The translations under genes and the position numbers were made by a program. A model generated the notes under the pieces. It was not told the DNA's origin. It did not search any database and worked only from the letters and a program-made list of their open reading frames with translations. A DNA stretch of 60,769 bases, filler included, from Hausera hauseri (Eukaryota), in NCBI GenBank assembly GCA_046269625.1. It is 12 parts of 12 records of this genome, joined end to end, with 100 filler letters (N's around TTAATTAATTAA, not from the genome) between each part and the next. Parts side by side here need not be neighbours in the genome. Positions count along the whole stretch, not along the records: positions 1 to 4,529 come from JBJURY010539898.1; 11 more parts are not named here. One strand, written 5' to 3'. This document shows, one piece after another, positions 1 to 57,934 of this stretch. Numbering within the stretch: the stretch's first letter is position 1; every line of letters begins with the position of its first letter.

Positions 1-451
1 CACACGTCATTTGTATCCGAATTGATCGGAGAGGTTTCTCAACCTGATCTAAGCGAAAATTCCAACAATGTTCGTGATGAAATTTCAACTGCACAGATTG
101 TGGAAATCACCGATCTCAATTCAGTCCTGCCAAACAAAAGCATTCACAGTGCATTTGTGGTTAATTCAACCCAAGATAATCTTTCGGAATCTCGTTTATC
201 TACTACGAATTCTCTCGATTCGCTTAAATCTCAAATCTTTTCGACTGTTCCATATCAACATACGAGTCGTCATGATAATCCAGTCGGACTGATAACGTTT
301 AACAACTTTCAGGCTAATTCAAATGTCGATTTTTTCAGATTGGACTCATATATCATTAAGCAGAATACCGATTTCAATTCTTCACTGGGTAAGACCATGA
401 ATAGATCTAATCACACCAGTCAGTAACTGCCCGACCGAATTCGGCGGCGAG

Positions 452-3400
452 TGCGGCCCTTCCTTCAAATTGCGGCCCCGTCCTCGGGATGCCGTGCACC
501 CGGTCTGTTTTCCCTTGTCAGGAGGAGAGCGGTTGGCCGTCTGCTCGTTCCGCATCACACTCCCAACTATAAGACACCCACTTTTTCCGTTTTCCTTCTT
601 CTAAACAATGAACTTGCCACAACATACGAAATAATACAACACACTTAAATAATCCGATTGTATAATCATGTCCGTACTAGGACAAACTTAAACGACTTTT
701 TCCTCAGTCATCATGGTCTCATCCTCTCCACTGTTGCCGATATCTTTTCTTCAACACAGTCTTCTTTCATTATTCACGTTAAACCCCGTGTCAGTGGTGG
801 CATGAATTCCTCCCCCACATTAGACACCACGGACAAAGCCAACAAACCACCGATCTCCATCACTTACTACCCAAACAAAGTGCTTCAAACACCCCGACAC
901 ATCACACATTCCCCACTCTTTCACCCTGCACAGAATACTTCCTCGACAGCCAAAATTCTACCCAAACATGGATAAAACTGCATCAATTCTAACTCCAATT
1001 ACAACCCTCGTCGACCCCTTATCCAAAGCCAACAACCTGTTTTTCCATTTACCTACTTCTATCAAAACCAAAATTACAAACATCATCGACATCCTTCACC
1101 ACACCGATCCATATGCCTACCTTGTTGTAACTACAACACACACAATAAAGCCAACACTATTAAACTCACGCAAAATAGTAGGCCAAACTCAACAACTATA
1201 AAAAAATCATTTCGCCGCTAGGACACACGGCACGTTCTAGTAAAGGCAACAATCTTCAAAAAACTGGCAGACACATTTCCTTTGCTGTATTCACGTTAGA
1301 AGCGGCAGTCGTCACTCCAACAAGGCAAAACATTAACTTTCTTATAGACACCGGCGCAGAAATCTCTTTACTACCACCAACACAGCACATCCAAAACGAT
1401 TTTGCTTCTAACAAGCAACTGTTCACTGCGTCCAGTAAATCTTTACAAATTTTTGGTCTTACTAAATTATATTTTACCCTACCAAATTTCCCAAACACAT
1501 TCACCTGGAAATTCGCAGCAGCCAATGTACGCAAACCTATATTGGGTTCAGACTTTCTGTCTCACTGAAATTTACTTGTGGACTGCAAACGATGTTCTTT
1601 AAAGAATGGAAATAATATTAATCAAATTAGCAGCATTTCGGTGGCTGCGCGGATGATCGCTGCCAGGAAGTCAATATTAAAAAAACGGCACCAATTTGAA
1701 TTATTTTTATACTCACTCGTTATATAGAAATTTTTATTACGGCGACAAATACGATATTGACAACTGCTCGGCACCCATTACTGATAGTACATCCGCCAAC
1801 ACTCTTCAACGCGAACATCCTGCACCTAATACCACCTTGTCACAACACCTCGTCTACACCTCATACTTCAACTGCATCCAGTCACGATGCATCGACACCA
1901 TCTGAAAACCTCTCATCGTTGCCCTTTGACTTACAGCAATACGTTTTGTCTTCCGGCACACGTCTGTTGCAAAAGGACAAATCATTCGTACCACCTAAAT
2001 CAACCTTCCATTACATAGTAACAGAACATAAACGACCAATTCGTCAAAAGGTTTGCCCCTATAACCTCGCCGCAGACAGGCAGTGGAGGATGAGTTTCTC
2101 GAACTGGAAAAATCAGGAATAATCAGAAGATCCAAATCCCCTTGGTCTTCACCACTGCATGTGGTTCCAAAAAAATATGGTACCTTTCGTTCATGCGGTG
2201 ATTACCTCCAACTCAACATTATAACCATAATGGATGCCTACCCGCTGCCATTAATTAACTATATCCTTCACAGGCTCCATGGTTCCGACATTTTTTCTTG
2301 CATTGATTTGCACAAAGCATATTACCAAATGCCGGTGGCCCCAGAAAACATTCATAAAACGGTTGTTACTACACCTTTCGGCCTTTTCGAATATCTTTTA
2401 ATGCGTTTTGGAATCCGTAGCACTTCACAGACCTTCCAAAGACATATTGATACAGTTCTCTCAGGTTTAGACTTTGCTTATCCCTATATAGATGATATCT
2501 TAATTGCATCATCTTCCTCAAAACAACACTCCGAACACTTACGTTTAATGTTCTAGCGTTTGCACCAAAACATTTTGCAAATTAATTTCTCCAAATTCTC
2601 CTTTTTTCAACATAAGGTCAACTTCCTAGGACATGTTTTTAGCTCCTCTGGACATTTACCCCACGCAGAGCGCATCACACAACTCAAAAACATACAGCTA
2701 CCACGCACATCAACAGAGATGCTTTCTTTCCTCAGAACCTTGCACTTTATTCACAAGTATATTCCACACTGCTCCACTCTAACCAATCCATTTGCGTCAC
2801 TAAGCTCCGGCAAGAAAAAGCAGCCTATCCAATGGACCTCCGAGCTAGTCAACGCTTTCGATTACCTCAAAGACAATCTAAAAACCGTGGAAATCTTGGC
2901 TTATCCCTACTCCCATGCAGAACTCTTCTTAACCATGAATGCATCCACAACAGCTGCAGGTGCTGTCCTCAATCAAGTCAAAAATGGATCCCATGAGCCA
3001 TTAGAATTCTTTTCTCGAAAATTCACGGTACAAGAACAAAGACACTCCACCTTTGATAGAGAGCTGCTTGCAATAGTCCTTGCTGTAAAACACTTTAAAC
3101 ATCTGCTAACCGCACAAACCTTCACAACACAAACGGACCACAAGCCCTTGCTTCAAATTCTTACCATGAAATCGCCTTCGCCACATCAATAGAGGCAAAT
3201 ATCGTATTTGTACACATTTAATTTTGAAATTAAGCACTTAAACGGAGTCGACAATTTAGTAGCTGACTTTTTGTCCCGATCGGTCAGCTCGATTGATTTT
3301 CCATCAATCCAAACTTCAACAAAACCAGCCACCTCCTGACATCCTTAAATCTTATAAATCGTGCAAAATTGTCGACGGTATGGCCTTTGATACCTCCAAA

Positions 3401-3780
3401 CCTACTAATCCTAAAATCATTTCTTTCGAATCGCTTCAAAAAGAATCATTCAACAACATCCATTCGTCGCATCATCCTGGGGCCAAGGCCACTTTTCAAC
3501 TCTTACAACGCCAAGTAGTATGGCTGTCGATGCGCTCTAACGTGCAGGCATGGGTTAGGCAGTGTTTGACATTTATACCCACCACTATACCATTTTCCCT
3601 GCACCTCTCGTTTTGAATCTGTTCACATTGAACTTGTAGGCTCACTACCCATAGACAACGGCCATCAGTTCATTTTCACGATGATGAACCGTGCCTCGCG
3701 ATGGCCAGAGGCTGTCCCACTTCGGAGCAACAACACAGAAACAATCGCAAACGTTTTCATCCGCACTTGGATCAGCACTG
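452..3780 (+). mobile_element. CsRn1-like Ty3/Gypsy retrotransposon copy A (decayed): putative short 5' LTR, Ubl-Gag (internally deleted), protease, RT, RNase H, truncated integrase
   Basis: TGCGG(452)...CCGCA(554) GC-rich unit. Protease FLIDTGA near 1340. RT: SPWSSPLHVVPKK, CGDY, DAYPLP, YIDD (2083-2556). RNase H: FFSRK, STFDRELLAI, TDHKPL. Integrase HHPG zinc region and the motif ending RWPEAVPL. Many stops and frameshifts. Confidence 0.92.
580..801 (+). pseudogene. Ubiquitin-like domain fused in frame to the Gag N-terminus (copy A)
   Basis: ORFs 451-648 and 658-975 share a frame: FSVFLLLNNELATTYEIIQHT*IIRLYNHVRTRTNLNDFFLSHHGLILSTVADIFSSTQSSFIIHVKPRVSGG|MNSSPTLDTT. About 73 aa with beta-grasp-like patterning and a C-terminal GG. 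Confidence 0.75.
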
Positions 3781-3789
3781 GCTCATTTC

Positions 3790-3871
3790 AACCAATAAGA
3801 ATTGTCCAATTTGAATGGACCAATCACAATTGCCCAATTTGAATGAACTTTAAGGTGAAGATGTATATAAA
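3790..3871 (+). promoter_or_regulatory. Pol II promoter-like array: four CCAAT boxes at a 14-bp period plus a TATA box
   Basis: CCAAT at 3792, 3806, 3820 and 3834. TATATAAA at 3864-3871, about 40 bp before the ATG at 3908. Confidence 0.65.
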
Positions 3872-3907
3872 TCATTACCTTGACAGTCATATTTCATTTT
3901 TACAAAA

Positions 3908-4390
3908 ATGTTTAGCAATATTAATTACACGGGCTTCACGGCAGCTTCGTTACATGAGCACCAATTCCGCTGTAAGCTTAAACAATGTGTTTTACGACAT
4001 ACAGGATACAAAATTATAATCTTTTCCACTGGAAAAAGTCGTACAATGGAATGCAAACAACCTATTGATCCATGCATTTTACCCTATAATATTTCCATTG
4101 TGAGTATACAGTCTATTAACATGACATGTGATTTTAATGAACCTATAGATCTCAATACATTGGCAAGGAATAATCCAAGTCGCTATGAACCAGAACTATT
4201 TTCTGCACTTAGATTAACTTGTTATAATCCTATATGTGTAAATGTTTTTTACACGAGGAAAATTGTTATAACAGGTTTGAAAGATTTAAACTACTGTAAT
4301 TTTGTTAGTTGTGTTTTAGACAATATATTGTCATCGACCTATGCTTTTTATGCAAAAAAACAAAAATGTATATATGCAATAACTTATTAA
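3908..4390 (+). CDS. Divergent, intronless TATA-binding-protein (TBP)-like protein
   Basis: Two TBP repeats: IIIFSTGK (TBP LIFSSGK), then IQSINMTCDFNEPIDLNTLA...RYEPELFSAL...VNVFYTRKIVITGLK (TBP IQNMVGSCDVKFPIRLEGL...SYEPELFPGL...LIFVSGKVVLTGAK). The first repeat is shortened. Confidence 0.8.
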   Translation: MFSNINYTGFTAASLHEHQFRCKLKQCVLRHTGYKIIIFSTGKSRTMECKQPIDPCILPYNISIVSIQSINMTCDFNEPIDLNTLARNNPSRYEPELFSALRLTCYNPICVNVFYTRKIVITGLKDLNYCNFVSCVLDNILSSTYAFYAKKQKCIYAITY

Positions 4391-6128: not shown

Positions 6129-7825
6129 GAAGATATGAAAAAACTGCAGGAATTACATGAGAATGGTTCAGGTGACTGTTCTGATTTGGAATCTACGGGA
6201 TCAGTAAATGAAGGGAATTGTACTAATTCAGATAGTTCAAGTTGAGAACTGTCTCATGATGACGAAGAGTTTACACCTTTTGGTAAAAGAATATCATTAC
6301 AACATCCGGCATTCGAAAACACTATTCATTTATTTCAAAGCAGTTGTGTTCATCTGGAATCGTCTGCTTCGTCCAATGCTGCGGACATATCTTCAGTTTT
6401 AAATGATCATGAAATCAGTAAATCTGATGTAAAATGGAAGAACATCACACATCTCATAACGTTTTCCGCGCAAAAAGTGGTCCAACTGATTTTGCCTGGT
6501 CAAACATAATAAATGAATCTAAAGCTAGTGCTCTTTGCTGCCTTATTGATGAACGCTGTATGAGAATGATCAAAGTTTATACTGAATCTGAAGCAAGACG
6601 TCAGCTGGGAGATCTCACTTCAAGAAATAGAGAAATTTATAGAACTGTGTTATATACGTGGAGGTACGGGATTACAGACCTTGCCATTAGACAGTCTATG
6701 GTCAAAAGAATGGGGGTTACCGATTTTTGTTCATTCCATGTCACGTGAAATTCATTAGGTTTGATTTGAAAACTACACAGTCTGAAAGATTACAACAGGA
6801 TAAGTTCGCCTTGATCTCTGAGATGTAGAATAAGTTTATAGATAACTGTAAGCTTTGTTATATGCCTTTAGAAGAGTTATCAGCATATGAACAGTTACTG
6901 CCCACAAAATGCCACTGTCCATTTAAGCAATTCATGCATAGCAAGCCGGATAAGTACGGCGTAAAGTTCTTCGTGCTTGCAGAGGTTGATTCAAAATATT
7001 TCTGCAATGGTTTTACTTATCTCGGAAAGCAAGATCCTACCTTGGACAGTAAGAATCTTGGAAGTCAAATAATACTTTGTTTGCTTCAACCATTTCTGAA
7101 TTTGGGATATAATGTGAATGCTGATAATTTCTTTACATCCTTGGATTTATGTGTCAGATTTCAGTTGAAAAACACAAGTTATGTTATAAGTTAAGATATA
7201 CAGCACAAAATCTGCTAGCAGACGGTGGCCTGTCGCGTTTTTTATAATATCCCAGACATTGTCGGTATTGACTCATGGATTTGGTTTAGAAAAGTGACAG
7301 ATGAAAACATTTCTCGTCGAAATTTTCTGTTGGGTTTAGGTAAGCAGTCAACAGGTTACCTATCTCCATTTCAACCACTGAATGATGAAATGAACGTTCA
7401 AATTGGCGATTGCGACGAGAACTCATCTAATCAAAAAACCTGCAAAGTCAAAGTGTGTCGTAATAAAAGTTCAGCATTCTGCAGCAGTTGCAAAGCTAGA
7501 GTTTGCGGAAAACACTCCGTAAAGACCGTTTCGTGCGATAAGTGTAACGTTCGTTAATAGTTGGACAAGCCCTTCTTCTGAACTGATCTTTAGGTGTTTT
7601 TGTGTAGTTTGTATAACTTGATGGAGCCTGTTCGTTTTATCATAGACTTTGTGTTGTTTGTTCTAGTCAATAAAATATGAGATTAACTTAATAGCATTTT
7701 ATTCAACTAAACGAAATAAGAGCCAAGCATAACTGTGTAAGTCTAAATAAATTAATGACAAATGCCGTCATTTTGACCGCATTGGGTTTTTAGGGATAGC
7801 CATTTTTCAGTAGTTCTAGTGTTAA
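6129..7825 (+). mobile_element. piggyBac (PGBD4-like) DNA transposon remnant with intact right end
   Basis: IRFDLK...DKFALISEM; EQLLPTKCHCPFKQFMHSKPDKYGVKF; ADNFFTSL; C-terminal cysteine-rich domain CKVKVCRNKSSAFCSSCKARVCGKHS. Right TIR GTAGTTCTAGTG followed by TTAA at 7822-7825. The left part is cut by the Ty3 LTR. Confidence 0.9.
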
Positions 7826-17998: not shown

Positions 17999-20900
17999 GG
18001 TTTTCGGTGTTTGCCTCTGTCACTAGTGCTTCTGCTGCAGTTTTTGGGCAACTGCCTCTGCTCTAAAGTTGCTTGATATTTTTCCATTTGCCATTGACAT
18101 TTGTTTCTGTTCTCCATTTTGTAATGCCAGCAGGATTCCTCCACCTCCATCTTTTATTGCATCTGTCGCTGATCCATCCGTGTAAGCGCGTGTCCATCAA
18201 CTGCTTGGGTATTGTTCCTCTATATATATTTAAATCTATTCTTTCCAGTTATTAAACCAACATTTGGTGATTTGTTTTTAGTTGTTATATTTCAATTAAT
18301 AACACTCCTAACTACGATGGATGATTTATCCGGAGCTACCGTTGCGGACCTACATCGATGCCTGCGGCCGGACCGTCTCTCGGTATCTCCCATTGATCCT
18401 AGCTCACCTCGCGCCTTCAAGAAGTGGAGCTTTATCTTTAGCCGTTACAAAGCCCGCATGCCTTGCCAGGATGATGATTATCTCTTAGGAGTTTTAGTTA
18501 ACTGTCTTTCCGACGAGAACTAAGAGTTAATTGAAAATTGTACTAGTTTCTCAGAGGCCTACGAGCTGCTACACTCTACTTTCCTGAAACCTTCTAGTGT
18601 GATTGTTGCCAGGCACAAGTTACTTACTCATCGACAAGAATCTTCTACTATCGATGAATTTTCTCGTCAATTGATGACCTTGGCGACCGACTGTAATATT
18701 AGATCTGTTACGGCGGCCCAATACAAAGAAGAGCTCATGAGGGACGCTTTTATTAACGGACTTAGCTCTAATTTTATACGCACTCGACTGCTTGAAAGTG
18801 ATACGCTATCCTATACTGAAGCAGTGTCAAGAGCTCGAGCCCTTGAATTAGCTCAGAGGGATTCTCTACAATATCGGCAACCTACAAATGTCCCTAAAAG
18901 AAATCATATTGTATCACCTATAATAGAAAATTCTGAAAATACTTATGATCACGAAAGTCTATATATGGAGTCTCCGATGCAGGATTACGAAGCATCCTGT
19001 ACCGCTCCGATATCACAGAGGAAGCCAGGTCTTGGTGGTTCTACCCCGACACGTTATCTTAGAAACAATGAGGCATGTTTTTATTGCGGTGGACGGCCCC
19101 ACCCTCGCCATACTTATCCGGCCCGAAAAATTAATTGCAGAAATTGTGGAAAGAAGAGGCATTACTCAAAGGTTTGCAAATCATCAAATGCTTCAGATTC
19201 TACTAACCGGCGGCGCACTGCAGCTCCTCTCAGATATCACCGCGATTCTATGGATGAAGAGGATCCAGTTCCTGTATTGGCTAGCTCCACGCACAATGAC
19301 TCCCCAAATCATCAGAGGGCATTGATCGACATTATTGTAAAAGGTCAAGCTGTACGTACCCTAGTGGACAGCGGTAGTGGTGAAAATTTTATATCCGCTG
19401 AGACCGTAGCTAGATTGTGCTTGCACCTTAAACCACATTGTGGTCACATCACTTTTGCTCAGAGGACATTGAGTAGTCCGATCTCTCAATCTTGGACTGG
19501 AGAAATTGCTATTAACGGAAGGAAATATCATAACGTGCGCCTCTTATTATTAGAAGATGCTTGTGCTGATATAATTTTAGGTTCACCCTTTTTGGATCTA
19601 CACCGTGAAGTTATTTTGAGGTATGGAGGATCTCTACCTCCTCTCACAATATGTGCCCTTGCATCAATGAAGATCCAGCCTCCTAGACCTTTTGAGAATC
19701 TCACTCCAAATTGCCATCCAGTAGCTGTTAAGTCGAGATGATACTCTGCCTCCGATCGTCAGTTTATCACATCAGAAGTGGACAGGATGATACGAGAAGG
19801 GATTATTGAGCCTAGCCGGTCTCCATGGCGAGCGCAGGTGGTCGTTGTTCGCGAAGGTAATAAAAATCGATTGGTAATCGATTACTCTCAAACAATAAAT
19901 CGTTTCACTTACCTTGATGCCTACCCTCTCCCTAGGATTGAAGATATAGTCAACAAAATCTCTCAGTATAAGTTTTACTCAAAATTGGACCTGAAGTCCG
20001 CATATCATCTTGTGCCTCTCCATTCGGAAGACCACCCTTATACCGCTTTTGAGGCTGGTGGGAGGCTTTATCAGTTTAAGAGACTCTCCTTCGGTCTCAC
20101 CAACGGGGTGAGTAGTTTCCAGAGGGTCATAGACAATTTTGTTTCGGAAAATAAACTGGAGGGCACCTTCGTCTACCTCGATGATGTCACTATCTGTGGA
20201 AAAACTAGGGAAGATCATAATCGCAATTTGAGAAAGTTCTTGTCTGCTGCCTCTCGTAGTAATTTAACTTTAAACCAAGAAAAATGTACCTTCGGAACTG
20301 ACTGCATTCACATCTTAGGGTACGAAATAAAATACAAGCAGCTACGTCCGGATCCAGAGAGATTGCGCCCCTTGATGGAGATGCCTATACCCGAGGACAA
20401 CAAATCTCTTTCTCGCCTGGTGGGGCTTTTCTCGTATTATGCACGATGGGTACCAAAATTCTCTGAAAAGCTGCTTTGCATATCCCGGTCTGGATTTCCT
20501 CTCTCTCAGGGTGCAAAGGTTGCTATCAAGACGATACAAAGTGATATAGATAATGCTGTTAAGGCCAGCATCGATGAGACTTTGGAATTTGTACTGGAAA
20601 CTGATGCCTCTGATTTTGCTATAGCATCCACCCTTAGTCAGGAGCGTCACCCCGTCGCCTTCTTTTCTAAAACTCTGAACCGTGCTGAGAGCAGATGGAG
20701 CTCCGTCGAGAAGGAAGCCTATGCAATCATTGAGTCAGTTAAGAAATGGCATCATTACCTATCCAGTCGGCATTTCAAACTTATCACTGACCAGAAGTCG
20801 GTCTCGTTTATATTTGACCTCAAGCATACAAGCAAGATTAAGAACAGCAAGGTGCTCCGCTGGAGAATGGAATTACTACCGTATTCGTTTACCGTAGCTT

Positions 20901-22258
20901 ATCGTCCCGGATCTCTGAATTCTGCTGCTGATGCTTTATCGAGAAATTGCTCTGCTGCGATTTCTTCTTCAAAACTAGCGTGGATACATGAGACCTTGTG
21001 CCATCCTGGTGTGACTCGCATGTTTCATTTTATTAAAATGAAGAACTTGCCTTACTCTGTAGATGATGTAAAACGAGTGGTATCCAGATGTGCGGTGTGC
21101 TGTCGTGTCAAGCCACAATTTGTCAGACCTCTGGCGTCTCCTCTGATTAGAGCCCTCAAACCTATGGATCGTATCAGTATAGATTTTAAGGGTCCTCTGC
21201 CTTCTTCGAGCCGAAATAAGTACTTATTGATTATCGTTGATGAGTTTTCACGATTCCCGATGGCTTATCCTTGCTCCGATATCTCGGCCTCTACGGTGAT
21301 TCGAAATCTTACCGACGTCTTTGCTCTATTTGGAACTCCTGGCTATGTACATTCCGATCGTGGTACTGCATTTATGTCGTCGGCTGTGAAGCAGTTCCTG
21401 CTTAAAAGAGGGGTTGCCAGCAGCCATTCTTCTCCTTACCATCCTACAGGGAATGCTCAATGTGAGAGGTTTGTCGGTATCGTTTGGAAGACTACAGCTG
21501 GCTTTGGCTACCCAGAAATCACCTATCCGCTTGGGAAACTGTTTTACCTGACGCCCTTCATAGCATTAGATCCCTACTGTGCACGTCTACCAATACCACG
21601 CCACATGAACGTATGTTCTCTTTTCCACGTAAATCGTCTGTAGGTTGCTGCATCCCTGGCTGGTTGTGTGAAGACTCTGTGGCCCTATTACGAAGAAGAT
21701 TCCGTTCCTCTGAAGATCCCCTTGTGGAGGAGGTGGAGCTGCTTGATGTCAATCCTTACCAAGCAAGGATTCGCTACCCTGGTGGACGTGAGGATACCGT
21801 TTCCATTTCGGGCCTATGTTTTGCTGGGGGAGAGCTCAGCTTCCTGAGGAGCCTCTTGTGGAGGTGAATACCCCAGAGACGTTCTCTGAAGTTCCTCCTG
21901 CTGTCTCTCCTCCTCCGCGTTCATCTGGGGTCGAGGTCTTTACTCCCTTACCCTGTGAGCCAGAACAGGAACCTCCTCCCGAAGTTCGAAGATCGTCACG
22001 TATGCGTCGTCCTGTTGACCGTTTGAGGTACGATCATTTTTGAGAGGGGGAGAGTTTGCTGAAACATCCAACTAACTGAGTAGGTTGGTTGTGTTGCTTG
22101 CCAGGCGATATTGATGTCGTTCTTTTCCTTAGTAGATGTGGTCAGTTGTGATACGACTACAGTTGGGAAAAGTGGTAAGTTTGCGCACTCTCTTACTTTC
22201 GTAGTACTTATAACTTGTAAATTTTAACTTGTATATATATTCTGTAATCTTGTAACTT
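17999..22258 (+). mobile_element. Near-full-length Ty3/Gypsy element, family 4, with single-frame gag-pro-pol
   Basis: 5' LTR ends ...CCAACA (18262), then TGGTGA. ATG at 18317. ORFs 18212, 18599 and 19778 are in one frame separated by two stops. Zinc knuckles CFYCGG..H and CRNCGKKRH; LVDSGS; YLDD; ETDAS; HETLCHPG; IDFKGPLP; HSDRG; ER. PPT GAGAGGGGGAGAG at 22042, 3' LTR from 22057. Confidence 0.95.
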
Positions 22259-22358: not shown

Positions 22359-22715
22359 TATACCCTTTCTCAGGTTAGTTGCACTTTACATGCACAGACA
22401 TGCACACAAGCACACACACACTGATATATACCTAAGATATACCTTTTCTCAGGTTAGTTGCACTTTACATGCACATACATGCACATGCACACAGGCAGAC
22501 ACACACTGACATATACCTGAGATATACATTTTCTCAGGTTACTTGCAGTTTACATGCACAGACATGCACACAAGCACACGCCATATATCTTAATCATTTA
22601 TTTCTCAAGTTACTTACATTTTACATGCACAAGCATACTGACATATAACTGGGATATATATTTTCTCAGGTTACTTACATTTTACAAGCACAGATAAGCA
22701 CACACACACACACTA
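22359..22715. repeat. Minisatellite (about 60-85-bp unit, about 5 copies)
   Basis: Recurring tttctcaggttagttgcactttacatgcacagacatgcacacaagcacac core. Confidence 0.85.
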
Positions 22716-22907
22716 AAAAGTGTTTAGAGTTGTCAAAGTTATATTGTTACTAAATAAAGTGTTATGAAATTAGTTGGTCTTAACCTATATAGTAGTTACA
22801 TAGTTTTACTTGGCCTTTTCCTATATCCCACATTACTTGATCAAGAAGACAACACGATATTCCTATACAAAATTTATTAAACAATGAACAACAATGAATA
22901 ACAATAT

Positions 22908-25900: not shown

Positions 25901-26380
25901 CTCTTGTTATCCTGACTTTCCTCAGCTTCACAGATCAGCTTTGCATGCTCTTCATGCAGCCATTCTACTATATTGGCGTTTCCCAATATTGGCCTATTTT
26001 TGGTGTTCTAGGCTCTATTGGATTCTTCGCCATTAACATTGATGCATGTGGCCTCCAGTTTCATGTTAACATTAAGGGCCTTGAGCTCAGCTGTTATCCT
26101 GGAGAATTCCCTCTGTTTCTTCTTTTGTATATTCCAGGAATTCCTTGATGGTTGTTTGGTCAATTGCATCAATAACATATCTGCGGAATTTTTTCTTTAA
26201 TGATGCCGCATCAACTGGCCACTGTCTTTGACTTTTTGTTGGAGCCGCTACGCCTGATGCACCTGATGTGCCTGATGCGCCTGATGCTGCTGCGCATGAT
26301 GCGGCTGCTCGTTTCAATTCTATAATATGCTTTGCAGCTGCTGCACCAGATTGTGCAACATAATCCGAGGCAGAATACAC
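22908..26380 (-). pseudogene. Polinton/adintovirus-type protein-primed DNA polymerase B with endonuclease-VII-like zinc insert (decayed)
   Basis: SGWTL; NACVNVHNNDNMCFMY; CYLC...VRDYCHFTGAYRGAACNNCNL; NLSGHDSRFI; KGVFPYEY; ANNLYGSAMSAPLP; KNSVFGKTMEN; KPIYVGMAILDLSK; YMDTDS; KRAKGV; DDKR. Multiple frameshifts. Confidence 0.92.
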
Positions 26381-26635
26381 TTTGTTTTAATGCATCATTT
26401 ACATGAACTTGTTTACATGATGCACTTGACTTGTCAAGGTTTTCATATATGGGAAATCTATTGAGTTCATCAGGTTCTTCGAATAACGTACACTTTATCG
26501 ATTTTTTAAGTTCGGATCGATTATTGTTCGATTTANNNNNNNNNNNNNNNNNNNNNNNNNNNNNNNNNNNNNNNNNNNNTTAATTAATTAANNNNNNNNN
26601 NNNNNNNNNNNNNNNNNNNNNNNNNNNNNNNNNNN

Positions 26636-39848: not shown

Positions 39849-42800
39849 CGCAGGAGACCCGGTCACACCGGAGTTTCGAGCACATCAGTGTGACCAACTG
39901 CCCGGACGTCTGTCCTATATCTATGAGTTCTACGCAATGGCCCGTTACGTCACCACATCACCGACTAAAACCCACACCAAAACTCTTTTTTTTCTTTTTC
40001 CTAAATAATTCCCAATAATTTGGACACAGAATAACGTCTTTTATAGATGCAACCTACTTGCACAATTATGTACTTCATTTTGCTAATATCCCTGACTTTT
40101 ATCTCACTTACAACAACCTACCTGTAAATAATGTCAATTTTCGCAACCTTTCTGTTCATTATTCAAGTACACATTCGTATCCGTGGTGGCATGGATTCTT
40201 CGCCCACCATTGACACTACTGATAATACCAACTCTAAATCCACACCCTTCACTTTTCTCCAAAAGCCAACGACAGCCACCACACCATCTACTTTCACCAT
40301 TTATACACCTTCCATCTCGCCAGCCAAACACACTTCTTCTCAGTGCACAGAATACTTTATTGACCATGAAAAGTCCATCAAAACTTGGCTTAACTTTTAC
40401 AAACTTTGGTTTAAGTCCAACAACATTACTGATCCCTCTGCCAAAGCTCATAGTTTACTTTGCCTCTTACCAAACACAATAAAGACTTCACTTCACAATA
40501 TTTTAGACATTTTTCAACAATCCAACCCGTACACTTATCACTATAATGCAGTTTTAAAACTCACGGAATTGTCTATGGATTCCATAATTCATGGATTCTT
40601 CAATGATAACGCTATTGGTACCAAAAACCATCCGATTTTCTCAGAACCTCTCTCGCTCAACTGCAAACACGGCGTTACAAAACAAAATAATTCCGATCTT
40701 TTACGACGTTACTTTCTAAACGCATTACCGATTCAGATCAGGGCTCTGCTTACTGTCGTCGAGGAATCGACGGCGCTAGATAAGTTAGCCGAACTTGCAA
40801 ACAAAACGTACGAGATTTTACATCTAAACACAATCTATCATTTTTGCAGCGCTTACAGCAAACGACAACACATTAGAATATCAAATACAACAGTTGCGAG
40901 CCGAAAATGCAGCCCTACATAATACTATAAACCATGTCATCGATAGATTAAATGAAATCTCTATGACTCAACGAAATGGTTCCACCTCCGACCACACACT
41001 CGCTGTACCCAGAGGTCAATCACCTTCTCCCGCGCGATCGCTAATCTGTTTTTACCACGATAGGTTTGCTCATAAAGCACAAAAATGTCATCTCGGTGTC
41101 GCTTTTGCACCCAAAAGTATCACGTTAACAATGCTGTTTGCATTTACCACGTAAAGTTTAAGCATGATGCACATAGGTGTATTCCTTATTGTGCCTTTAG
41201 AAGCAACACTCAACATACGAAGGTCCGACGTTCTCTCTTACCTTCTAACAGCCGTCCATGTCCACCACTGCCAAAAAACTAATTCCGACGACAGAGCTTA
41301 CGGCAAGTCCTGGTGGAGGCCAGTATCCAGTTTCTACCAGCCGAAAACTTTCTCTCGCCGTATTTACAGTTAAAGCAGTAACTAAATCACCAAAATCTCG
41401 CCACATAGACTTCCTTGTCGATTCAAGTGCAGCGATTTCTTTCCTACCGCTCACCTTTCCAACTTAACACACTTTATCCAAATATAAACCTCTATTTACA
41501 GCTTCTGGATAACCGCTACATGTTTTCGGTACTCGTAGGCTTTCTTTTACCCTTCCGAAATTTACGCCAACGTTCCACTGGACGTTTACCGTTGCAAACG
41601 TCCAGACAGCCATTTTAGGTTCCGACTTTTTGCACCATAATCTCCTTGTCTATTGCAAACAACGTTGCTTAACAAGTGGTTAAAATAAGGAGCAAATCGA
41701 TCACACCGATACCATTTCGGTTGTCATGCGGATGAATGCAACTCGAAAACCGATATTAAAAAACCGTTGAACAAACCTTTTTTTACAATCATGGTATCTT
41801 TTTTATAAGTTGTTGAAGAACAATATTACTGACGATTGGATTTTGCACGGCGATGAGCATGATTCCACTACCAATTCCAAATCATTAAATAACACTACCA
41901 CCTACAATACCATTTTCAATACTACCATCCTGCATCGAATACCACTTCATTTTAGATCACCAAATAACGTCCAAATTGCAACAGTTACCGATAAAACCAT
42001 CTTGCTTCCAACAAACTTTTCACAATTACTTGAAAGTCTGCAGCAATTTAGTAATGTATCCTGTTCTAGAATAATTCAAAAAGACAGGTCTTTTACACCA
42101 ACCAATACCACTCTCATCACATTATGACACAACATCAAAGACCTTTCCGCCAAAACGTGCGTCCATTATCTCCTCGTCGTAGACAGGCCGTTGAAGCCAA
42201 ATTTCTAGAGCTCGAACGTTCCGGCATCGTATGTCGCTCCAAATCCCAATGGTCGTCGCCATTACATGTCCTGCAAAAGAAGGACGGAACTTTTAGACCA
42301 TGTGGTAATTATCGTCAGTTAAACCCTTTGACAATAATGGATGCATATCCGCTACCACTCATTAAGGATATCTTACACCGTCTTAATAACACCACAATTT
42401 ATTCTACCATTAATTTATTCAAAGCCTAGCACCAAATTCCGGTGGCACCTGAAGATATCGCAAAAACAGCCGTAACTACTCCTTTTGGCCTTTGCGAATA
42501 TCTGTACATGTCTTTCGGCCTACGAAACGCTGCGCAGACCTTTCAACGCCAAATTGATGCTATTCTTTCTCATTTTCCATATGCTCATCCATATATCGAT
42601 GACATATAAGTTGTTTCTTCTTCAACCCAACAACACGAGAAACACCTCAGATCACTCTTTCAACGTTTACACCAGAAGAACCTACAGATTAATTTCGCAA
42701 AATGTCGTTTTTTCCAGAAGCGTCTAAATTTTCTTGGTCACATTATTTCTTCTGAAGATCACTCTCCTCAACCCGATCGAGTTTGAATCCCTAAAAAATG

Positions 42801-43421: not shown

Positions 43422-43551
43422 NNNNNNNNNNNNNNNNNNNNNNNNNNNNNNNNNNNNNNNNNNNNTTAATTAATTAANNNNNNNNNNNNNNNNNNNNNNN
43501 NNNNNNNNNNNNNNNNNNNNNCGGAAGCACAATCAAGTCCATATCAAACTT

Positions 43552-47740: not shown

Positions 47741-47843
47741 CCGNNNNNNNNNNNNNNNNNNNNNNNNNNNNNNNNNNNNNNNNNNNNTTAATTAATTAAN
47801 NNNNNNNNNNNNNNNNNNNNNNNNNNNNNNNNNNNNNNNNNNN

Positions 47844-49440
47844 GTTAAAGAGGCTCTTAACGTAAAAACGGCATAAGTATGGCTATCAGGATGAGAAATT
47901 TTGCCTGTGTCAGAATGTGCCGAAACATCTGGAGGCTTTATGAGTTTTTTGGATGCACAGGATTTATGTTCCTGGATAGAGTAGGATGTGATGGATTAGA
48001 TCGATTAACAAAGGTACAACCTGTAACGCAGTTCTGTGTTTTAGAATTGAATTTATTATGGTATATTTAGATAATATCGGATCGTTTGAAATTGGGAGCA
48101 TAAAATCTGCAACCTAAGCAACATTTAGTGGAGTTGTATTTAAATTTAGTGTGGTAGTAGCACACCACTGATCGTGTAGGTAACCTCGCATGCCTTGAAT
48201 TTTGAGATGAAGTGAGGTTATGGTTTGCATCAATACAATTTCGTCTAGGCATAATCAAAGTTTCGATTTTTGACGTGAATGCAGAAATTGCTTGGTGTAT
48301 GTTGGCGTTTTCAGAACGTAAAGAATTTATCTTGGAGTTCAGATTAGATATGTCGTTAGCCTGTTGAGTTGTTGGTGCTTGTAGCGTAGCGGCTACTAGT
48401 GGGGCTGTATGTTTATGTAATATCTTGTTGCTTTTGTCAGCCAGTTGTGCTAGTTTGTGTAGTGACGATGTGTCCTCTACTATGGTCAACAGTGCACGTA
48501 TGTCTCTAGGTAAAGACTGCAGAAAATATCTGCGTAGTAAATCGGTGTTGTTTGCTTGATTAACGTCAAGAGTACTCAATTGAGTTAATGAGGTTTGAAG
48601 AAATTCTGAGGGTTTCAATGAGTCTATGGTGTTGTCGTTAAAATATTTGTGGATAATGTTATCCAGAGATGGATCCGTGATTTTTAAAATCGAGTTAAAA
48701 ATGTTTTGTATGGTTCACTGCTTTGGAAAATTTCCGACAAGTTGGGAAGCTGCGACTTAATGTTGGATGGCAAAAGTATAAGCAAGTTGTCGACAATATT
48801 ATTGGACTTCAACCAAGCCATATGAAGGTCCAACCACGTCCGGCTGGAATGTTGCTTGTCAACGAAGTATTCTACGCAAGGTAGGTTTACAGTAGACGAC
48901 GAAGGTAAAGGTAAATTTAGCGGTACGCTTATAGTAGGAATGTCGACAAAGTCTTGTTGGTCGTTAGATGAGGCTTTTGGATCGGATCCACCTAACAGAC
49001 GGTAGTGTACAGTCAGTATAGGTGTTGAAGATGAGTGGGTGTAACTTTTTATAATGTCGGATTGTCGGACAAAAGTCCATTAAAACTAAGGCGAAAATTA
49101 ACACGAGTTGTTTGTCGTTGTAACATGCCTGATAATTTTGAAATTGTTGCTGATTTGTGAATGTAGTAGGATTGTGTATGCTTATTTTCGAATAACAAGA
49201 CAAGTGGAACGAAACTGTCACATAAGTCGGCTGTGCAATGTGGCGCATAAGACACTGGCGCGCCAAAATCCCCGCAATGTGTCAGTCGATTTGCCCAACC
49301 GGGGTGGTAAACACTGGAAAAGACGTCCTGCTCCTCCAGCTCGGTTGACGTTTGACGTCGTCGAGTTCTTTAATGTCCCGCGCGCATTCATAATTCAGAA
49401 AAAAGTCATTCTAGCGTCTGTCACCTTTGTTCCTGACACG
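47844..49440 (-). mobile_element. gag: CsRn1-like Gypsy copy F: Ubl-Gag, tandem CHCC, slippery site
   Basis: LVLLFENKHTQSYYIHKSATISKLSGMLQRQTTRVNFRLSFNGLLSDNPTL, frameshift, SYTHSSSTPILTVHYRLLGG|SDPK...VEYFVDKQHSSRTWL. KPSEFL; LLRRYFLQSLP; CYYHTKF..KCCLGC. AAAAAAC at 47944-47950. Confidence 0.9.
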
Positions 49441-50289
49441 ATTACAGTAACTAAGATAGGACGACGTAGTCCAATTTTGACGACATGATCATTCATTATT
49501 TCGGAACCGCCAGCTAAATCAATGGCTCTCAATAATTTGCGAGTCTGTACCCTAATAATTATTGAAAAATCTCGTAGATTCTCACAATGTTGAAGAAGGG
49601 TTGTACTCAAATACTTAAAGTGCATTATGCATCGAAGAAAAGTTGAATCTGAAATTTGTGGACGGGTACTTTTAATAGCATTTATTATGAGATATTTCAG
49701 ATTATCACCTTGTGATATCACCTGGAACATGATATGTATTGGCATAATTTTACAAATTATAATAGAACACAAGTATAATAAATTCACCGACCTTTTTTGG
49801 TTCCTAGCAGGTGATATTCAGAAATGGCCAAATCTGCAACGGTTTTTTATTTGTCATTATTCCTAATTTCCGAAGTTCCAACTTATTTTCTGCTGCAGAG
49901 TTGTCAAGTAATGGTACGCTTACTATCAGGAATCGGTATTGTATTGATACCAGCACATTATCAATTATATGTTCGACTAGATCATGATAATCGTCGTTCA
50001 TCAATCGTCTATCTTTGAATACTTCCAAATGTTGCATTTCAATATTCTAGTATGTTATCGATCTATTTCTTACGCCATTCAATTGTTTCGATAAAAACAT
50101 AATTCAAATAACGTTGAGTAAAATAGACATGGATAATTCAGTCTTTCGAGGTCGCTACGTTTATATCCTTCAAATTCTGCTTGAATGTCTGGCAGAATAA
50201 ACAATCTTCATTCATTGTAAAAATAATATATCCGTACGTAGCATTAATTAAACATAATCCTGGACCATAAAATGTAACACCATACCGCT

Positions 50290-50639
50290 GTGAATAAAAC
50301 TGTGGACCGTCTGGTGTTTTGGATGAAATGTAAATATATCAGGATAAAATGCAATTTCTTTTATATCAATTCCAACAGACTTCATTAAAGAATATGGTTC
50401 TGGGTAGTTTGACAAAAATAAAATTTGGACTAAAATGGGTTTATCGGCAGGATTTTGCAATAAAATATTTATGTAGCTACTATTTCCGACTTGCGTAATA
50501 GGGAATATGACAAACTTATCAGATAAAATGCTCGGCCATATTAACTGCACCGTAATTGCATTTAGAAATCCTTTTATAGCGGAAGTATCCATTTGCAAAG
50601 TAACATTGAAAGTTTTACCGTACACAAGTTGTGTGAATA
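50290..50639 (-). pseudogene. TMEM131: TMEM131 (RW1)-like gene fragment truncated by an insertion
   Basis: VQLIWPSILSDKFVIFPITQVGNSSYINILLQNPADKPILVQILFLSNYP matches the TMEM131 pattern LSWPSIL...FPLT....EITLENPADVPVYVQFIPL as recalled. Confidence 0.75.
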
Positions 50640-50993
50640 TGTCGGTTCTGCCCCACCCCCCAAGGTGCCGCTAGGCACCGTTGCTATGCACATTTTTGCA
50701 CTTTTGACAAATCGATCGCTGAACAATGCAGTATTGATCGAATCGATCGGGACAAATTGCTAATCGATAGAGCACATCGAGGCGCATCGATTGGTGCACT
50801 TTCCAGGTGTGCAGCACATGTGCAGGTGTGCAAAAATCAATAATATTTGATTTCCGATAAATCTAAAATCGATGATTATCACTCGGCACCGGATGCTATG
50901 GGTAGCACACATGACGGGTTATGTGAATGTGCAGTTGTAATTTAAATCGATTGATTGGTTTTAGAATAATTTAAAAATGGGGCAGAACCGCCA
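50640..50993. repeat. 354-bp element with 16-bp terminal inverted repeats, likely an LTR related to the one at 13151
   Basis: TGTCGGTTCTGCCCCA...TGGGGCAGAACCGCCA (15/16 inverted). Its start and ATCGAT/TGCAC-rich composition resemble TGGCGGTTTGGGCCCACCCC at 13151. No TSD seen. Confidence 0.7.
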
Positions 50994-53114: not shown

Positions 53115-55763
53115 GACCGAATAGCATAAACAAGTACTCGTAGAGGCCAAAAAGATTAGTGACGGCGGTCTTTTCTATGTTTTTGTGTGCGACTGGTATT
53201 TGATGTTATGCTTTGGCCAAATCAATGGTCGAATAAATTGTGGTTAAATTAAGGCGATGCAAGATATCCTTAATTAGTGGCAGGGGGTACGCATCCATAA
53301 TTGTCAAGTTGTTCAACTGGCGGTAATTACCGCATAGTCTAAAAGTTCCGTCCTTTTTGTACAACATGTAAAGGTGACGACCAAGGATATTTGGAACAGC
53401 GTACAATGCCGGAGCGTTCTAGTTCAAGAAATTTGGCTCCTACGGCCTGCCTATGACGAGGTAACAGTGGTCGTACCTTTTGGCGTATTGGTCGTTGATG
53501 CTGTTTAATTATGTGATATACATTGTTGTTTGCAGGCGTAAACGTGCGATCTCTTTTGAGTATTCGTGGACATGATGTGTTGACAAACTGCTGTAAATTT
53601 GTAGGCAACTGTGAGAGATTCGGTGATGATGGTGAAACTGCTTGAGTAGTAGCGGATGCAATTTGTGAATTGTTTGGTGATGTTCAGTCAAGTGGTATTT
53701 AATATAAGATAGTCGAATTGAAAATGGTGTTGGATGAAGTGATTTCGCCGAGTGAATTAACGTTGGTGACAGTACCACAATTAGCGACATCGAACCTCGT
53801 TTAAATATCAATATTATTATTTAAGAATTTACGAAATGAATTATTGTTACAAAAAATCCGATTATATTCTGATTTTCTCAAAAGTGATCTCCACGTCTCG
53901 ATCGACTGCACGGTAGTCGAAATGCTATTGACATGCTCAGCAATGCAGCCAGTGATGCCGCTCCTCAGACATCGTTGACTGTAGTCAACCAATAAATTCT
54001 AATGCGATAGAAAATCGGACCCTAGAATTGCCGTCTGGACGTTAGCAACTGTGAACGTCCAGTGGAAAGGTGAAGGAATTTTTGGTAAGATAAAAGATAG
54101 TTTAGCCATGCCATAAATGTGCAGCGGTCGACCTGAAGCGGTGTATAAGGGCTTAATTCTGAATGGTGAATTTTGTACAGGGAAAGTTTGTGGTAATAAG
54201 GAAATCGCTGCACCTGTATCAATGAGGAAGTCAACGGATTGCGTTGTAGGAGCGGTGATTGCAGCCTTTAGAGTAAAAACAGCAAAAGAGGCGTGTCGGC
54301 ATTCAGAAAGTGAAGTACTGCCTTTGCCAGAGTTTGCCGTGACTTCTGGCGGCAAATTTAGTTTTTTTGAGAAGGTAAACTAGGAAGACTATTAGAAGGA
54401 AAGGTAGTTCGTCCGTCGTTCGTGTCTGGTTTGAAGGTGCAGCCTGGAATGCATTTACGGGCTTGATTTTAGACTTTGCGTGGTAAATGCAAACAACGGT
54501 GTCTGAAGAAAAACTATTATTATAAAATTTGCACCCTAGGCAGCATTTTTTGGCATTTTTATTTATCTACTCTGATAGTAGCATATAGACGAACGCGCAG
54601 GCCATGGTGACCGGTTTCTAGATGCACGAGGGGCGCGGTCAGTAGCAAAATCCCTTCGCCGGGACAGGGAAAGCTCGTTTAATTTGTTGTTTATATTGTT
54701 AATTGTTGCGTGTAGTGCAATATTTTCAGCACGTAGCTGATTGAGTTGTTGTTCTATTGGTATGTTATTGGTTTGAATATCGTTAGGGGCAACTGCCGCC
54801 GAAACGACTGGTGGGGAATGTAAGTGTAGAACATCATGTGTTTTATCGGCTAATTCGGCCAATTTTTCAAGAACCGTGGAGTCCTTCACCACGGTAAGTA
54901 GGCCCCGGATTTGGATGGGTAACGCGTTAAGAAAGTAATGATGCAGTAATTCGGGGTTGTGTTCTTTAGTGACGCCGAGAGTGTGAAGATGTGCCAAAGA
55001 CATGCGTAAAAATTCTGATGGTCGTTGAGTGCCTATAGTATTGTCGTGGAAGAAGCGTTGTATGATCGTGTCCATTAAGGGTTCTGTGATTTTAAGAACA
55101 GCGTTGGAGAGCTGTGAGTATGGGTCAGGAAGTTCAAAGATTTCAAGGATGTTGTGAATTCGTAGTTTAATGTTGTTAGGGAGTAAGAAGAGGAGATTGT
55201 GTGCCTTGGTTAAAGGGTCGGTGATATTGTTTGCCTGTAGCCACAGTTGGTGGAATTGCAACCACGTTTTGCTGCAGCCTTGGTTGTCTATAAAGAATTC
55301 AGTGAAGTGAGGGAAAATAGTGGAAGAAGTAGTAGATGAAGGGTTATTAGCAGAAGTAGGAGTGAATTTTTGAAGCACTGTAACATATTTTGGTTTCGTG
55401 GTGGTTTTATCTGTGGTGTCTATGGTTGGCGATGAATTCATGCCACCACGGATGCGGAAGTGTATATGGAGTGGAAATAAGTTGAAGGAGGTTACAGGGT
55501 CCCAGCGATAGGTACTGTAGAGCCGTGGTTCGTGATGTAAAAGTCATATGAACGAAAAGTGGAGATGGCGTTGTAGATATCTGTAGTGTGTAAATGTTTG
55601 TTATTTAAAAAAGAATAGAGAAAATGACGTGGACGTATAGCCAGAGGCTTGTCGTGGGGCGTCATCGAACGGTGCCGTCCGACCCGATGGTGCAGGGTGG
55701 GTGGCCTGGACTTCAGCCACGCCGCGGCGAATCTCAAACTTCTGGGTGACCGAATTCCCCACA
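53115..55763 (-). mobile_element. CsRn1-like Gypsy copy C: about 111-bp LTR-like unit, Ubl-Gag, slippery site, protease, RT start
   Basis: TGTGGGG(55763)...CCCCACG(55653). MTPHDKPLAIRPRHFLYSFLNN...YDFYITNHG, frameshift, LFPLHIHFRIRGG|MNSSPT. 292-aa Gag ORF; FLIDTGA; CGNYRQLN. Confidence 0.92.
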
Positions 55764-56855
55764 GAAATGATAGATTCGGGACGCTTATTATCGGACATGT
55801 ATATTTGATGACTATTGGAATCACACGGTTTCACAGGTAAGGTATATTTTGTTTGCCCGTTTGTAAAACTCAAACATTCTCCCCCAGTGGAATATAAAAT
55901 AACGAGAATCCCGTTTCAACGACGAATAAAACTGACAACATGTCGGAATTTTTCTTTGATATCTGTCGATAAGTGTAACTTCACTTTGGCCGTATATTTT
56001 TGCTCTAAAAGTTGAGCACCAAGTATCAATGGCTGTGATATTAATGTTAACTTGGAGTACATATTGACTACTCGAAAGTTTTGCCTTTATAGATGATGTT
56101 GCTTATAAACGTATATTTTATAGGATATTTGAGTGCGATAAAGCAGCATTAACCATGAGTAGAAACCTAACAACTTGACTATGCACAATACTTTTGACTT
56201 TTTCGTCGAAAAATATTAAAGAAACTCTAGCAGACCCTGTTTTCTAGTCGCTGACTAACTGCGTATAACATTGAAGTTCTTGCTGCTCCACATTTCCAAT
56301 CAACACTGGTGTTGAATATTCTGACTCAGTCCACGTAATAAATTTTAGAACACCTTGTGTATCGCTATTTAAACCCGATTCATGTATTTACCATTCAAAT
56401 GATGAATCGTCCAACGTGGAGAACGTTAGCGAATTCATCGGAAACCCTGGCGATAAAAGCTTCTGGAGTTGCATGTAAATATAACTCCTGTGTTCGGGAT
56501 TCAACCGGTAGATGCGTAATGTCGTCAACTATGACGTTACAATTTACAATATGACCGGTAGCAGTGCTTTTGGTGTAACTTGTAGCTGTTGCACGATAAA
56601 TTAATTGCCAAACAGGAGTAGCAGCATCCTCATAGGAATATTTTGCATCCGAAATTAACAGTGATATTGTTGCCACTTCGATGGTGCTTGAAGACCATGC
56701 ATGACAAATGAAAGATGAGCCTCGTATCGTATAATTTATTGTGTAAAAGTACTTCTGGGTAAACGAATCTTTGAAACACTTAATTTAAATTCGATTCCTT
56801 TTGTTACGTGTACATATACGAAAAAACGTACCAATAAAATTTCAGTAGGGCTCAT
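55764..56855 (-). pseudogene. NUP210: Nucleoporin NUP210/gp210 N-terminal pseudogene fragment (no evident introns, many lesions)
   Basis: Signal-like MSPTEILLVRFF; KLSVSKIRLP; INYTIRGS..CHAWSSSTIEVATI; TGHIVNCNVIVDDITHLPVESRTQELYL; TFSTLDDSSFEW; LVSD*KTGSARV; QIYMSDNKR. Colinear with the gp210 N-terminus as recalled and ends exactly at the LTR TG. Confidence 0.85.
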
Positions 56856-57934
56856 GATAAAATTTATGAAATAAATGAAAATAGATCCTTTTGTCAAATT
56901 ATACAAAAATAAGAACATTACAGTGCTCCGGTCTACACGGTCCGTCTCTGTACGCTGTCGGCAAGTATCTATGATTGTTGCATCTGACTGCCGCAGAATA
57001 TTTGACTGTACTTTTTGACACCATTTATTGGATATTATGTTGATTGAACAAACGAAATCTGGACATTGGTTCGTTTTTCGACAATAGGCAAATCGAATGC
57101 GCATAACATATCTGTTATTAAACTTTCCGCAAGGAAAAATTTTCCTTTGATGTAAAATTCAGTGACTAAAAATATTGGGTCGAACTGAATTATATGGCCG
57201 AATGAATAATCAGAAATTCCCGTTATCGTGCAAATTGACATGCAAGAAGTATATTGAACACTTATAAATCCATTCATACAAACAGATTGAATATCAAAAG
57301 TCTGCAAATAGAAATTGAAAAAAAAAACAAATTGTTCACAATGGAAAACGCCATTCAAATTTTCATAAACAAGATTTTTATTTATTTACATTTTTTAAAC
57401 AAAATAATTACAAACAAGTCAACAAGTATTGGCAATTTCGGTAACCGTGCATTATCCTCACCTTGCAGCGTCAACTTCCATATTTATCCCTTTTGGAATG
57501 AGCATTTTCAAGGAATTATTGGGAAATCCATCAAACGCCCGTCAAACGACAAATGACCTTTTTCCAATCGACAATCCGAATGTATTTCCATCTTCAGACA
57601 GAATTGACATTTTAATATTCGGCGGACGATACAAACTAATCGTAGTTCTCTATAAATGTAAATAATACTTTGCATGTCCCGAATTAAAATTATTTGCACC
57701 AATTGGCGAATAATCAGTGGAAAAATTACGGTTTTGTGCTGTTCGATGAAACCGGAAGAACATTTCCGTTTGAAAATCATTTACAATCAAACCAATAACT
57801 TCAAATGTTTTTTTCGTAAAACATCATCGAGTTAAGTTGTAAATCCAGGAAAGACATATCTTATCCATGTAATTTGATTTGGAAGAATTCATTCGACATA
57901 AAAAATAGAATGAAACTCGTGATTGACAAAATCA

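Follow-up and report, generated by a model that had tools for sequence, protein, structure and literature searches.

A predicted ubiquitin-like domain ending in Gly-Gly precedes Gag in a lineage of Ty3/Gypsy retrotransposons

Copy A, a retrotransposon remnant of Hausera hauseri, was found to belong to a Ty3/Gypsy lineage in which a predicted ubiquitin-like domain (Ubl) ending in Gly-Gly (GG) stands directly before Gag in the same frame. As judged from sequence, this Ubl-Gag fusion is almost certainly real: a profile of outside relatives matched copy A and the fusion was unbroken in intact relatives, which bears out what the initial annotation of copy A had proposed. The window, i.e., the whole stretch of 60,769 nucleotides analyzed, consisted of 12 contigs joined by spacers, and copy A was on contig 1 (1–4529). 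The maturation of Gag in LTR elements is considered to rely on two things, the start codon and the protease encoded by the element itself. The lineage of copy A appears to possess an undescribed way of making Gag: a leader, the Ubl and Gag would be translated as one polypeptide, which a host deubiquitinase would cut at GG. We regard this mechanism, taken as a whole, as fairly likely.

Frame +1 of copy A read from position 580 as first described, with FLLLNN at 592–609, LYNHV at 658–672 and DFFLSHHG at 694–717, followed by IIHVKPRVSGG at 769–801 and MNSSPT at 802–819. The single internal stop of this frame within 580–830 was TAA 646–648. The initial annotation, right as to the fusion, had missed that the frame runs far upstream of the Ubl, and it is this extension that explains the Ubl. 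Over all six frames of the window, 583–801 was the top match of an HMM built from 27 outside proteins (E-values of 5–6e-5). Its score of 24.0 bits was reached by 0 of 2000 shuffles; with an HMM lacking the last strand and GG, 5 of 2000 shuffles reached the score of copy A. The intact relative P0001 aligned to 460–819 of copy A in one frame (29% over 127 amino acid residues). A Pfam scan of the Ubl frames of the window, including that of copy A, found no match to ubiquitin (PF00240), and the domain of copy A is predicted to be a diverged Ubl, not ubiquitin. Its assignment to the beta-grasp fold rests on models of P0001 and P0008, to which copy A is tied by the HMM and the P0001 alignment. Two residues before GG, copy A had V where its relatives had L, I or A.

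The order of gag followed by protease, reverse transcriptase, RNase H and integrase in copy A, as well as in the intact Pol of two relatives (L001 and L006), was that of Ty3/Gypsy elements (Table 1). Copy A is a dead, decayed member of this lineage. Its Gag changed frame twice in comparison with an intact relative, tblastn with P0001 gave no match in copy A to the C-terminal half or the zinc knuckles of the relative's Gag, and its pol contained stops and frameshifts. TAA 646–648 is most plausibly one of its many lesions. Selection at the protein level, also suggested by the initial annotation, would thus not apply to copy A at present, with its Gag frameshifted and half gone and its pol interrupted; for the family, the suggestion stood, as indicated by the dN/dS values of the Ubl and the constancy of GG in intact relatives given below. 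Sequence related to copy A was abundant in run X1, where, among the matches listed, four contigs lay on the Ubl and three of these crossed the GG junction. Directly after the truncated integrase, a TBP-like frame (Pfam TBP, E-value of 1.5e-11) was observed at 3884–4390 (+). This region was highly repeated in both read runs examined and therefore probably belongs to another mobile element.

Table 1. Features of copy A and of its sister copies, with positions in the window
Feature	Position	Strand	Basis
Leader frame of copy A, shared with Ubl and Gag, open from the first position of contig 1	1..423	+	Stop counts
In-frame TAA in leader, putative lesion	424..426	+	
GC-rich last part of leader, same frame	427..582	+	P0001 alignment from 460
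Predicted ubiquitin-like domain of copy A, ending R-V-S-G-G	583..801	+	Outside-relative HMM; relatives predicted to fold as beta-grasp
In-frame TAA within Ubl, close to helix start	646..648	+	Translation
Gly-Gly, predicted cleavage site	796..801	+	GG in 28/28 Ubl-bearing relatives; cleavage putative
Gag N-terminal part, frameshifted	802..1165	+	tblastn with P0001 and with sister Gags
Aspartic protease region, broken	1182..1589	+	Pfam gag-asp_proteas E 0.009; tblastn with intact Pol
Reverse transcriptase and RNase H, with stops	2056..3294	+	Pfam RVT_1 9e-15, RT_RNaseH_2 1e-26
Integrase, partial	3374..3875	+	Pfam Integrase_H2C2 5e-12
Copy B: Ubl (frameshifted) ending RIRGG, then Gag	39986..40190	+	HMM i-E 0.0016
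Copy C: Ubl (frameshifted, shortened) ending RIRGG	55442..55626	-	Weak HMM match, i-E 0.6
Gag of copy C	54474-55441	-	
NUP210-like host fragment, 5' of copy C Ubl, same strand	56398..56784	-	Pfam Ig_NUP210_1st E 2.6e-6
Possible primer-binding site of copy C	57011..57023	-	2 mismatches to relatives' 12-mer (~0.3 such matches expected by chance across four copies)
Copy D: Ubl (frameshifted) ending RLLGG	48987..49213	-	HMM i-E 0.08, 0.39 (two pieces)
Gag of copy D, with CHCC knuckle	48010-48986	-	
TMEM131-like host fragment, same strand, 1.3-1.7 kb 5' of copy D GG	50251..50670	-	Pfam Ig_TMEM131L_4 E 5.6e-12

The same layout recurred in divergent DNA on independent contigs, as had been noted at the outset. 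In three sister copies, R-x-x-GG stood directly 5' of a related Gag, with GG ending at 40190 (+), 55442 (−) and 48987 (−), and their Ubl DNA was 58–65% identical to that of copy A in gapped global alignment. The Ubl was broken in all four copies, of which B, C and D were each frameshifted upstream of GG. With the last 12 codons omitted, 4 of 6 pairs of copies aligned above dinucleotide shuffles (p of 0.003–0.047), namely copy A with each of its three sisters (p of 0.003, 0.047 and 0.003) and B with C (p of 0.023); B–D and C–D did not (p of 0.85 and 1.0). The best frame of copy A was its Gag frame in all three sister comparisons, and a matched 222-nt upstream control scored 24–30 in five pairs and 43 in one. 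The identities among the copies at the three codon positions, 66, 87 and 53 of 151, followed a coding pattern in an alignment that was itself protein-guided.

The upstream piece of copy C matched residues 42–143 of human NUP210 (E-value of 8e-7) and was located behind the possible primer-binding site (PBS), but it could alternatively be flanking host DNA. Similarly, the TMEM131-like piece of copy D may represent either cargo of the leader or host DNA that flanks the element. Both pieces suggest an animal-like host. A second GG-ending unit considered upstream of copy D reached only 1.2 bits and was rejected. With the copy D frame, a PDB sequence search gave no match and a protein atlas search no usable match. 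Word-indexed searches with the Gag of copy C and with the TMEM131 piece gave no match either, and a metagenome scan with the Gag of copy C yielded 506 candidates, none of which was confirmed.

Other mobile elements were also observed in the window. A fifth related element at 58518–60769 (+) lacked its 5' region including the Ubl and, of Gag, had just the C-terminal part, followed by pol; a stretch at its 5' junction recurred on contig 8. At 18173–21867 (+) was a Gypsy element of another kind, which was almost intact and had long frames for gag-PR and RT-RH-IN; the Ubl profile found no match before its Gag. Two opposed gag-like copies about 80% alike were at 13359–17898 on contig 4 and were also present on contig 2. 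Moreover, the broken frames at 22359–26535 and 43522–47743 were, from their motifs, presumably related to Polinton-type DNA polymerase B, and those at 6428–7557 (+) presumably to piggyBac-type transposase.

A profile of the Gag frames of the window matched 1546 proteins at an E-value of 0.001, of which 150 were examined. The Gag anchor of the family was present in 31 of the 150 listed matches. All 26 anchor-bearing proteins that reached far enough upstream had xxGG before Gag, and the other 5 started downstream. Although the Gag profile took in the last Ubl strand of the sister copies, many of the matches began at profile position 50 or beyond and hence were not found through GG. Moreover, a DNA scan with the Gag motif alone identified 21 loci, 17 of which had a Ubl match, three of these 17 being training proteins of the HMM and three pairs of loci being near-duplicates. 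The remaining 4 loci began in the last strand or inside Gag. Of 30 clusters examined, 29 were from ENA, JGI or Logan assemblies and one was from MetaClust.

PF00240 was matched above its curated cut-off in five relatives (P0089, L002, L004, L010, and L019). Seventeen diverged Ubls without a Pfam ubiquitin match of their own (E-value of 0.1; 0.05 for P0138) were combined into a profile, for which the best 60 of 297 PDB rows were solely ubiquitin or ubiquitin-like chains. The Ubl model of P0001 had a pLDDT of 84.8 and matched ubiquitin and SUMO at a TM of ~0.7 (probability of 1.0, E-value of ~0.01); P0008 was likewise modeled as a beta-grasp. Thus, the Ubl of the closest relative is predicted to have the beta-grasp fold. 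No capsid fold was among the Foldseek rows listed for the full model, which were dominated by the Ubl. The dN/dS ratios in intact relatives were 0.25–0.48 for the Ubl (estimable in 7 of 8 pairs), 0.04–0.14 for Gag and 0.40–1.13 for the poorly alignable leader; the Ubl range overlaps the two lowest leader values (0.40 and 0.48), and all such ratios come out lower when the alignment is protein-guided.

Most of the Ubls were only 18–40% identical to the near-ubiquitin ones. The near-canonical ubiquitins of L002, L004, L010, L019, and P0089 were 50–65% identical to each other. Close kin of their Gags carried Ubls that were only 18–40% alike, and L010 and L005 shared 72% in Gag and 21% in the Ubl. 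Either host ubiquitin was recaptured or the rates of change were very uneven. On the Gag tree, the near-ubiquitin versions required 3 changes, and a tree grouping them together was tolerated (AU p of 0.135). At least one CHCC knuckle (CX2HX9CX3C) was found in 26 of 28 Ubl-bearing relatives and in copy D, but it was absent from copy A. Two such knuckles in tandem were found in 25 of the 28 Ubl-bearing Gags vs. 8 of the 122 other matches, and these 8, where included, fell on the Ubl side of the tree. A quick Gag tree placed the Ubl group apart from 36 other CHCC Gags with an SH-aLRT of 92, which was not starred.

The relatives are units of about 5 kb, in which the order is LTR, PBS (TGGTGTCAGAAG), leader, Ubl, Gag and pol, the last with a −1 frame overlap. 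This PBS, which we take to match tRNA-Leu, was found in 11 of 21 loci between the 3' region of pol and the Ubl and was absent from contig 1. L002, L005, L012, and L017 were circularly permuted units of 4.9–5.5 kb, as expected if two LTRs collapse in assembly. No locus had both LTRs plus flanks, and the first position of contig 1 already lies within the leader. All 10 loci listed had an A-rich run immediately upstream of the gag stop, a feature that a −1 frameshift site would be expected to have.

Between PBS and Ubl, the Ubl-Gag frame contained 4 stops vs. 92 and 47 in the other two frames (844 codons of 9 loci, about 8 independent ones given that L007 and L014 are 90% identical). All 4 belonged to L019, the frame of which opens after the PBS. 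In the other 8 of the 9 loci, the frame opened 109–387 nt ahead of the PBS, and this part included an in-frame ATG. L004, L005, and L014 lacked any in-frame ATG from the PBS to the Ubl. The PBS occurred in all three phases relative to the frame. In L016, an in-frame ATG overlapping the first bases of the PBS was observed at 260–275. The periods of tandem duplications were multiples of 3 in 7 of 7 families inside the frame, for which chance would give (1/3)^7 or about 5e-4, and in 0 of 4 outside it. Thus, the stop counts and the period-3 duplications show that the frame of the leader was kept while its sequence was not. Similarly, copy A had 1 stop in the 193 codons upstream of its Ubl vs. 5 and 15 in the other frames, and one stop or fewer occurred in a fraction of 0.0005 of 20000 shuffles. 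Its leader at 1–423 had no Pfam match under an E-value of 0.03. In intact relatives, the frame opens within the LTR and remains open across PBS and leader, and the leader is very likely translated. Gene callers miss or garble such leader-Ubl-Gag ORFs, for instance P0018, which is the Gag of L001 called from the Met after GG.

In the mechanism that we favor, the first ORF of the copy A lineage would comprise leader, Ubl, GG and Gag, followed by pol in the overlapping −1 frame. Translation would begin within the LTR-derived part of the transcript, at an AUG, and the ribosome would read through the cis-acting 5' RNA, including PBS and leader. The protein sequence of the leader could drift freely and acquire duplications as well as pieces of host mRNAs. 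Host deubiquitinases would then cleave after GG and free Gag (and Gag-Pol), leaving Gag with a fixed and mostly small N-terminal residue. The Ubl would thus serve as a processing cassette that uncouples the N-terminus of Gag from the start codon and from the content of the leader.

Deubiquitinases recognize an L-x-G-G tail and cut poorly before proline. GG was invariant in all 28 Ubl-bearing proteins, preceded by L or I two residues back in 27 and by R or K three residues back in 22 of the 28. The residue after GG was M, G, A, S, T or V in 26 of 32 proteins (background of 35%, p of 1e-7) and never Pro (0 of 32, p of 0.04), in counts that include kin many times; the bias to small residues may be an inheritance that goes back to a single fusion event. 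Host enzymes are likely to cleave at GG, but recognition by a host deubiquitinase is not assured, as most of the Ubls are only 18–40% identical to the near-ubiquitin ones. It is unlikely that host enzymes do not remove the Ubl and that it is instead a matrix-like domain, a signal for turnover by ubiquitin-fusion degradation or for recruitment of ubiquitin-binding factors, or a part trimmed by the element's own aspartic protease. Such roles are consistent with Ubls mostly far from ubiquitin yet well predicted in fold, and the element does encode a protease. However, an uncut Ubl would need neither the invariant GG nor the lack of Pro after it, and the 100–850 unrelated residues that make up the leaders of relatives would hang on each Gag subunit.

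Pieces of host genes were found before the Ubl in P0002, P0006, P0014 (= L009), P0026, and P0174, including DIS3 with CNOT1, histone H2A, cohesin SA, 5'-nucleotidase and a weak phosphoesterase match. Those of P0002, P0006, and P0026 could be joins made by gene callers; L006 and L009 were the loci checked on DNA. L009 had a single open frame of 932 codons up to GG that contained the cohesin-SA-like piece, and its leader had no PDB sequence match. It is rather unlikely that the leader captures fragments of host mRNAs in frame which are made at Gag-level abundance and released with the Ubl as decoys or as an element-encoded modifier. Quite unlikely, too, is the related explanation that cleavage occurs and that its useful product is the leader-Ubl set free, which would act with its host fragments on host surveillance or degradation, either as a Ubl that can be conjugated or as a decoy. 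Cleavage would leave a free GG end on a Ubl that is under purifying selection, and leaders do hold DIS3/CNOT1, H2A, cohesin SA and NUP210 pieces. The cargo, however, was different in each element examined, many leaders had no Pfam match and leader dN/dS rose to 1.13. Moreover, the surface of the Ubl was not conserved, the two glycines being the sole invariant residues in alignment A3 of the Ubls.

Translation of the leader, on which the favored mechanism depends, may not be universal: L010 and P0156, with Met at the first Ubl strand, could start at the Ubl itself, and together with the interrupted leader of L019 they argue against such universality. That the leader is generally untranslated and that translation starts at or just before the Ubl, from its own AUG, a near-cognate codon or internal entry, giving a simple N-terminal fusion as in ribosomal-protein precursors, is very unlikely. 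Besides these three cases, the GC-rich stretch just 5' of the Ubl in the window copies would suit such a start. The stop counts and period-3 duplications show, however, that the leader frame was kept open, and the GC-rich stretches folded no better than shuffles in all 4 copies (z of −0.87 to +0.57; −0.34 for 427–582 of copy A, i.e., nothing unusual) and had no Rfam match. A ribozyme or IRES before the Ubl was rejected in the 4 copies on these grounds. Finally, the resemblance could be due to chance or be a relic: the Ubl would then belong to the 5' untranslated region, or would be a ubiquitin insertion that is dead, and Gag would start at the ATG that directly follows GG in copies A, B, and C. 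This reading has practically no chance of being right despite the broken Ubls of all four window copies and the missing Pfam ubiquitin match of copy A. Ser follows GG in copy D and Met does so in just 3 of 28 intact relatives, and at the family level the reading is contradicted by fusions without breaks, by dN/dS values of less than 0.5 and by the true ubiquitin of five relatives.

If the favored mechanism of leader translation and deubiquitinase cleavage is true, the first cut is handed to host deubiquitinases, which would be a new expression strategy of retrotransposons and would predict a point of host control. It would also explain how the coding constraint on the cis-acting 5' RNA is lifted and how pieces of host genes are carried without harm to the capsid. 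Moreover, the Ubls form a natural series from near-ubiquitin to about 20% identity, on which it can be asked how little a deubiquitinase needs. No report of a Ubl-Gag fusion in LTR retrotransposons was found in the literature searched, with subscription papers, supplements, Repbase and GyDB lying outside the search, and a database note on it may already exist. The accessible parts of two papers mention only proteases or other ubiquitin-related domains (PMC2836005, PMC6431247), the word "ubiquitin" does not occur in a third (PMC2774666), and it is also absent from the paper on the CsRn1 clade (PMC2582038).

Among known systems, GAG of yeast Ty1 starts inside the 5' LTR, and the PBS is within the coding frame. 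Different from the elements described here, Ty1 is copia-type, its short, fixed leader is part of Gag and it has no ubiquitin unit. In the precursors Ub-eL40, Ub-eS31/S27a and FUBI-eS30, a Ubl with GG stands ahead of a passenger and is removed by host proteases, and FUBI is a diverged Ubl that is still cut. In these precursors, however, the Ubl forms the N-terminal end of a host protein, whereas here a long and variable leader precedes it in a mobile element.

The CsRn1 clade (CsRn1, PwRn1, and AgCR) has the CHCC Gag signature CX2HX9CX3C and a tRNA-Trp PBS, according to the accessible parts of its description (PMC2582038). Similar to this clade, as far as those parts go, the Ubl-Gag family has a CHCC Gag, the PR-RT-RH-IN order and a −1 overlap of gag and pol. 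It also shares the DUF7041 Gag domain with arthropod clusters. Different from the clade as portrayed there, the family has Ubl-GG before Gag, a leader that is probably translated, a doubled CHCC knuckle and, with the PBS TGGTGTCAGAAG, apparently another primer than the tRNA-Trp given there (PMC2582038). Given the doubled knuckle and the apparently different primer, we place the family near, not in, the CsRn1 clade.

Ginger transposons carry OTU or Ulp1 proteases, as stated in the accessible parts of PMC2836005. They, too, link a mobile element with the ubiquitin system, but Ginger carries the protease, whereas the family described here carries a substrate; a scan of two Pol frames gave no OTU/Ulp1-type protease domain. 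LTR elements are also reported to capture fragments of host genes, sometimes of several genes, on the sense strand, and the retrocopies in the accessible parts of that report are flanked by discontinuous elements (Tan et al., PMC5131818). Different from those, the pieces found here share a frame with Gag, in elements whose gag and pol are intact, and would be insulated by the Ubl.

The nearest precedent, by analogy, would come from cytopathic pestiviruses (BVDV Osloss, CP1, and CP Rit) with their ubiquitin processing signal, in which, in the accessible parts of two reports, an inserted ubiquitin unit is cut by cellular hydrolases (PMC8310069, PMC13517609). Similar to what is proposed here, the captured unit, when cut, gives the next protein its authentic N-terminus, and the inserts are often mosaics with pieces of other host mRNAs in front. 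The pestivirus inserts described in those parts are sporadic, recent and near-identical to host genes. In contrast, the unit described here is fixed across a deep reverse-transcribing lineage, is mostly at 20–40% identity and stands before a capsid protein.
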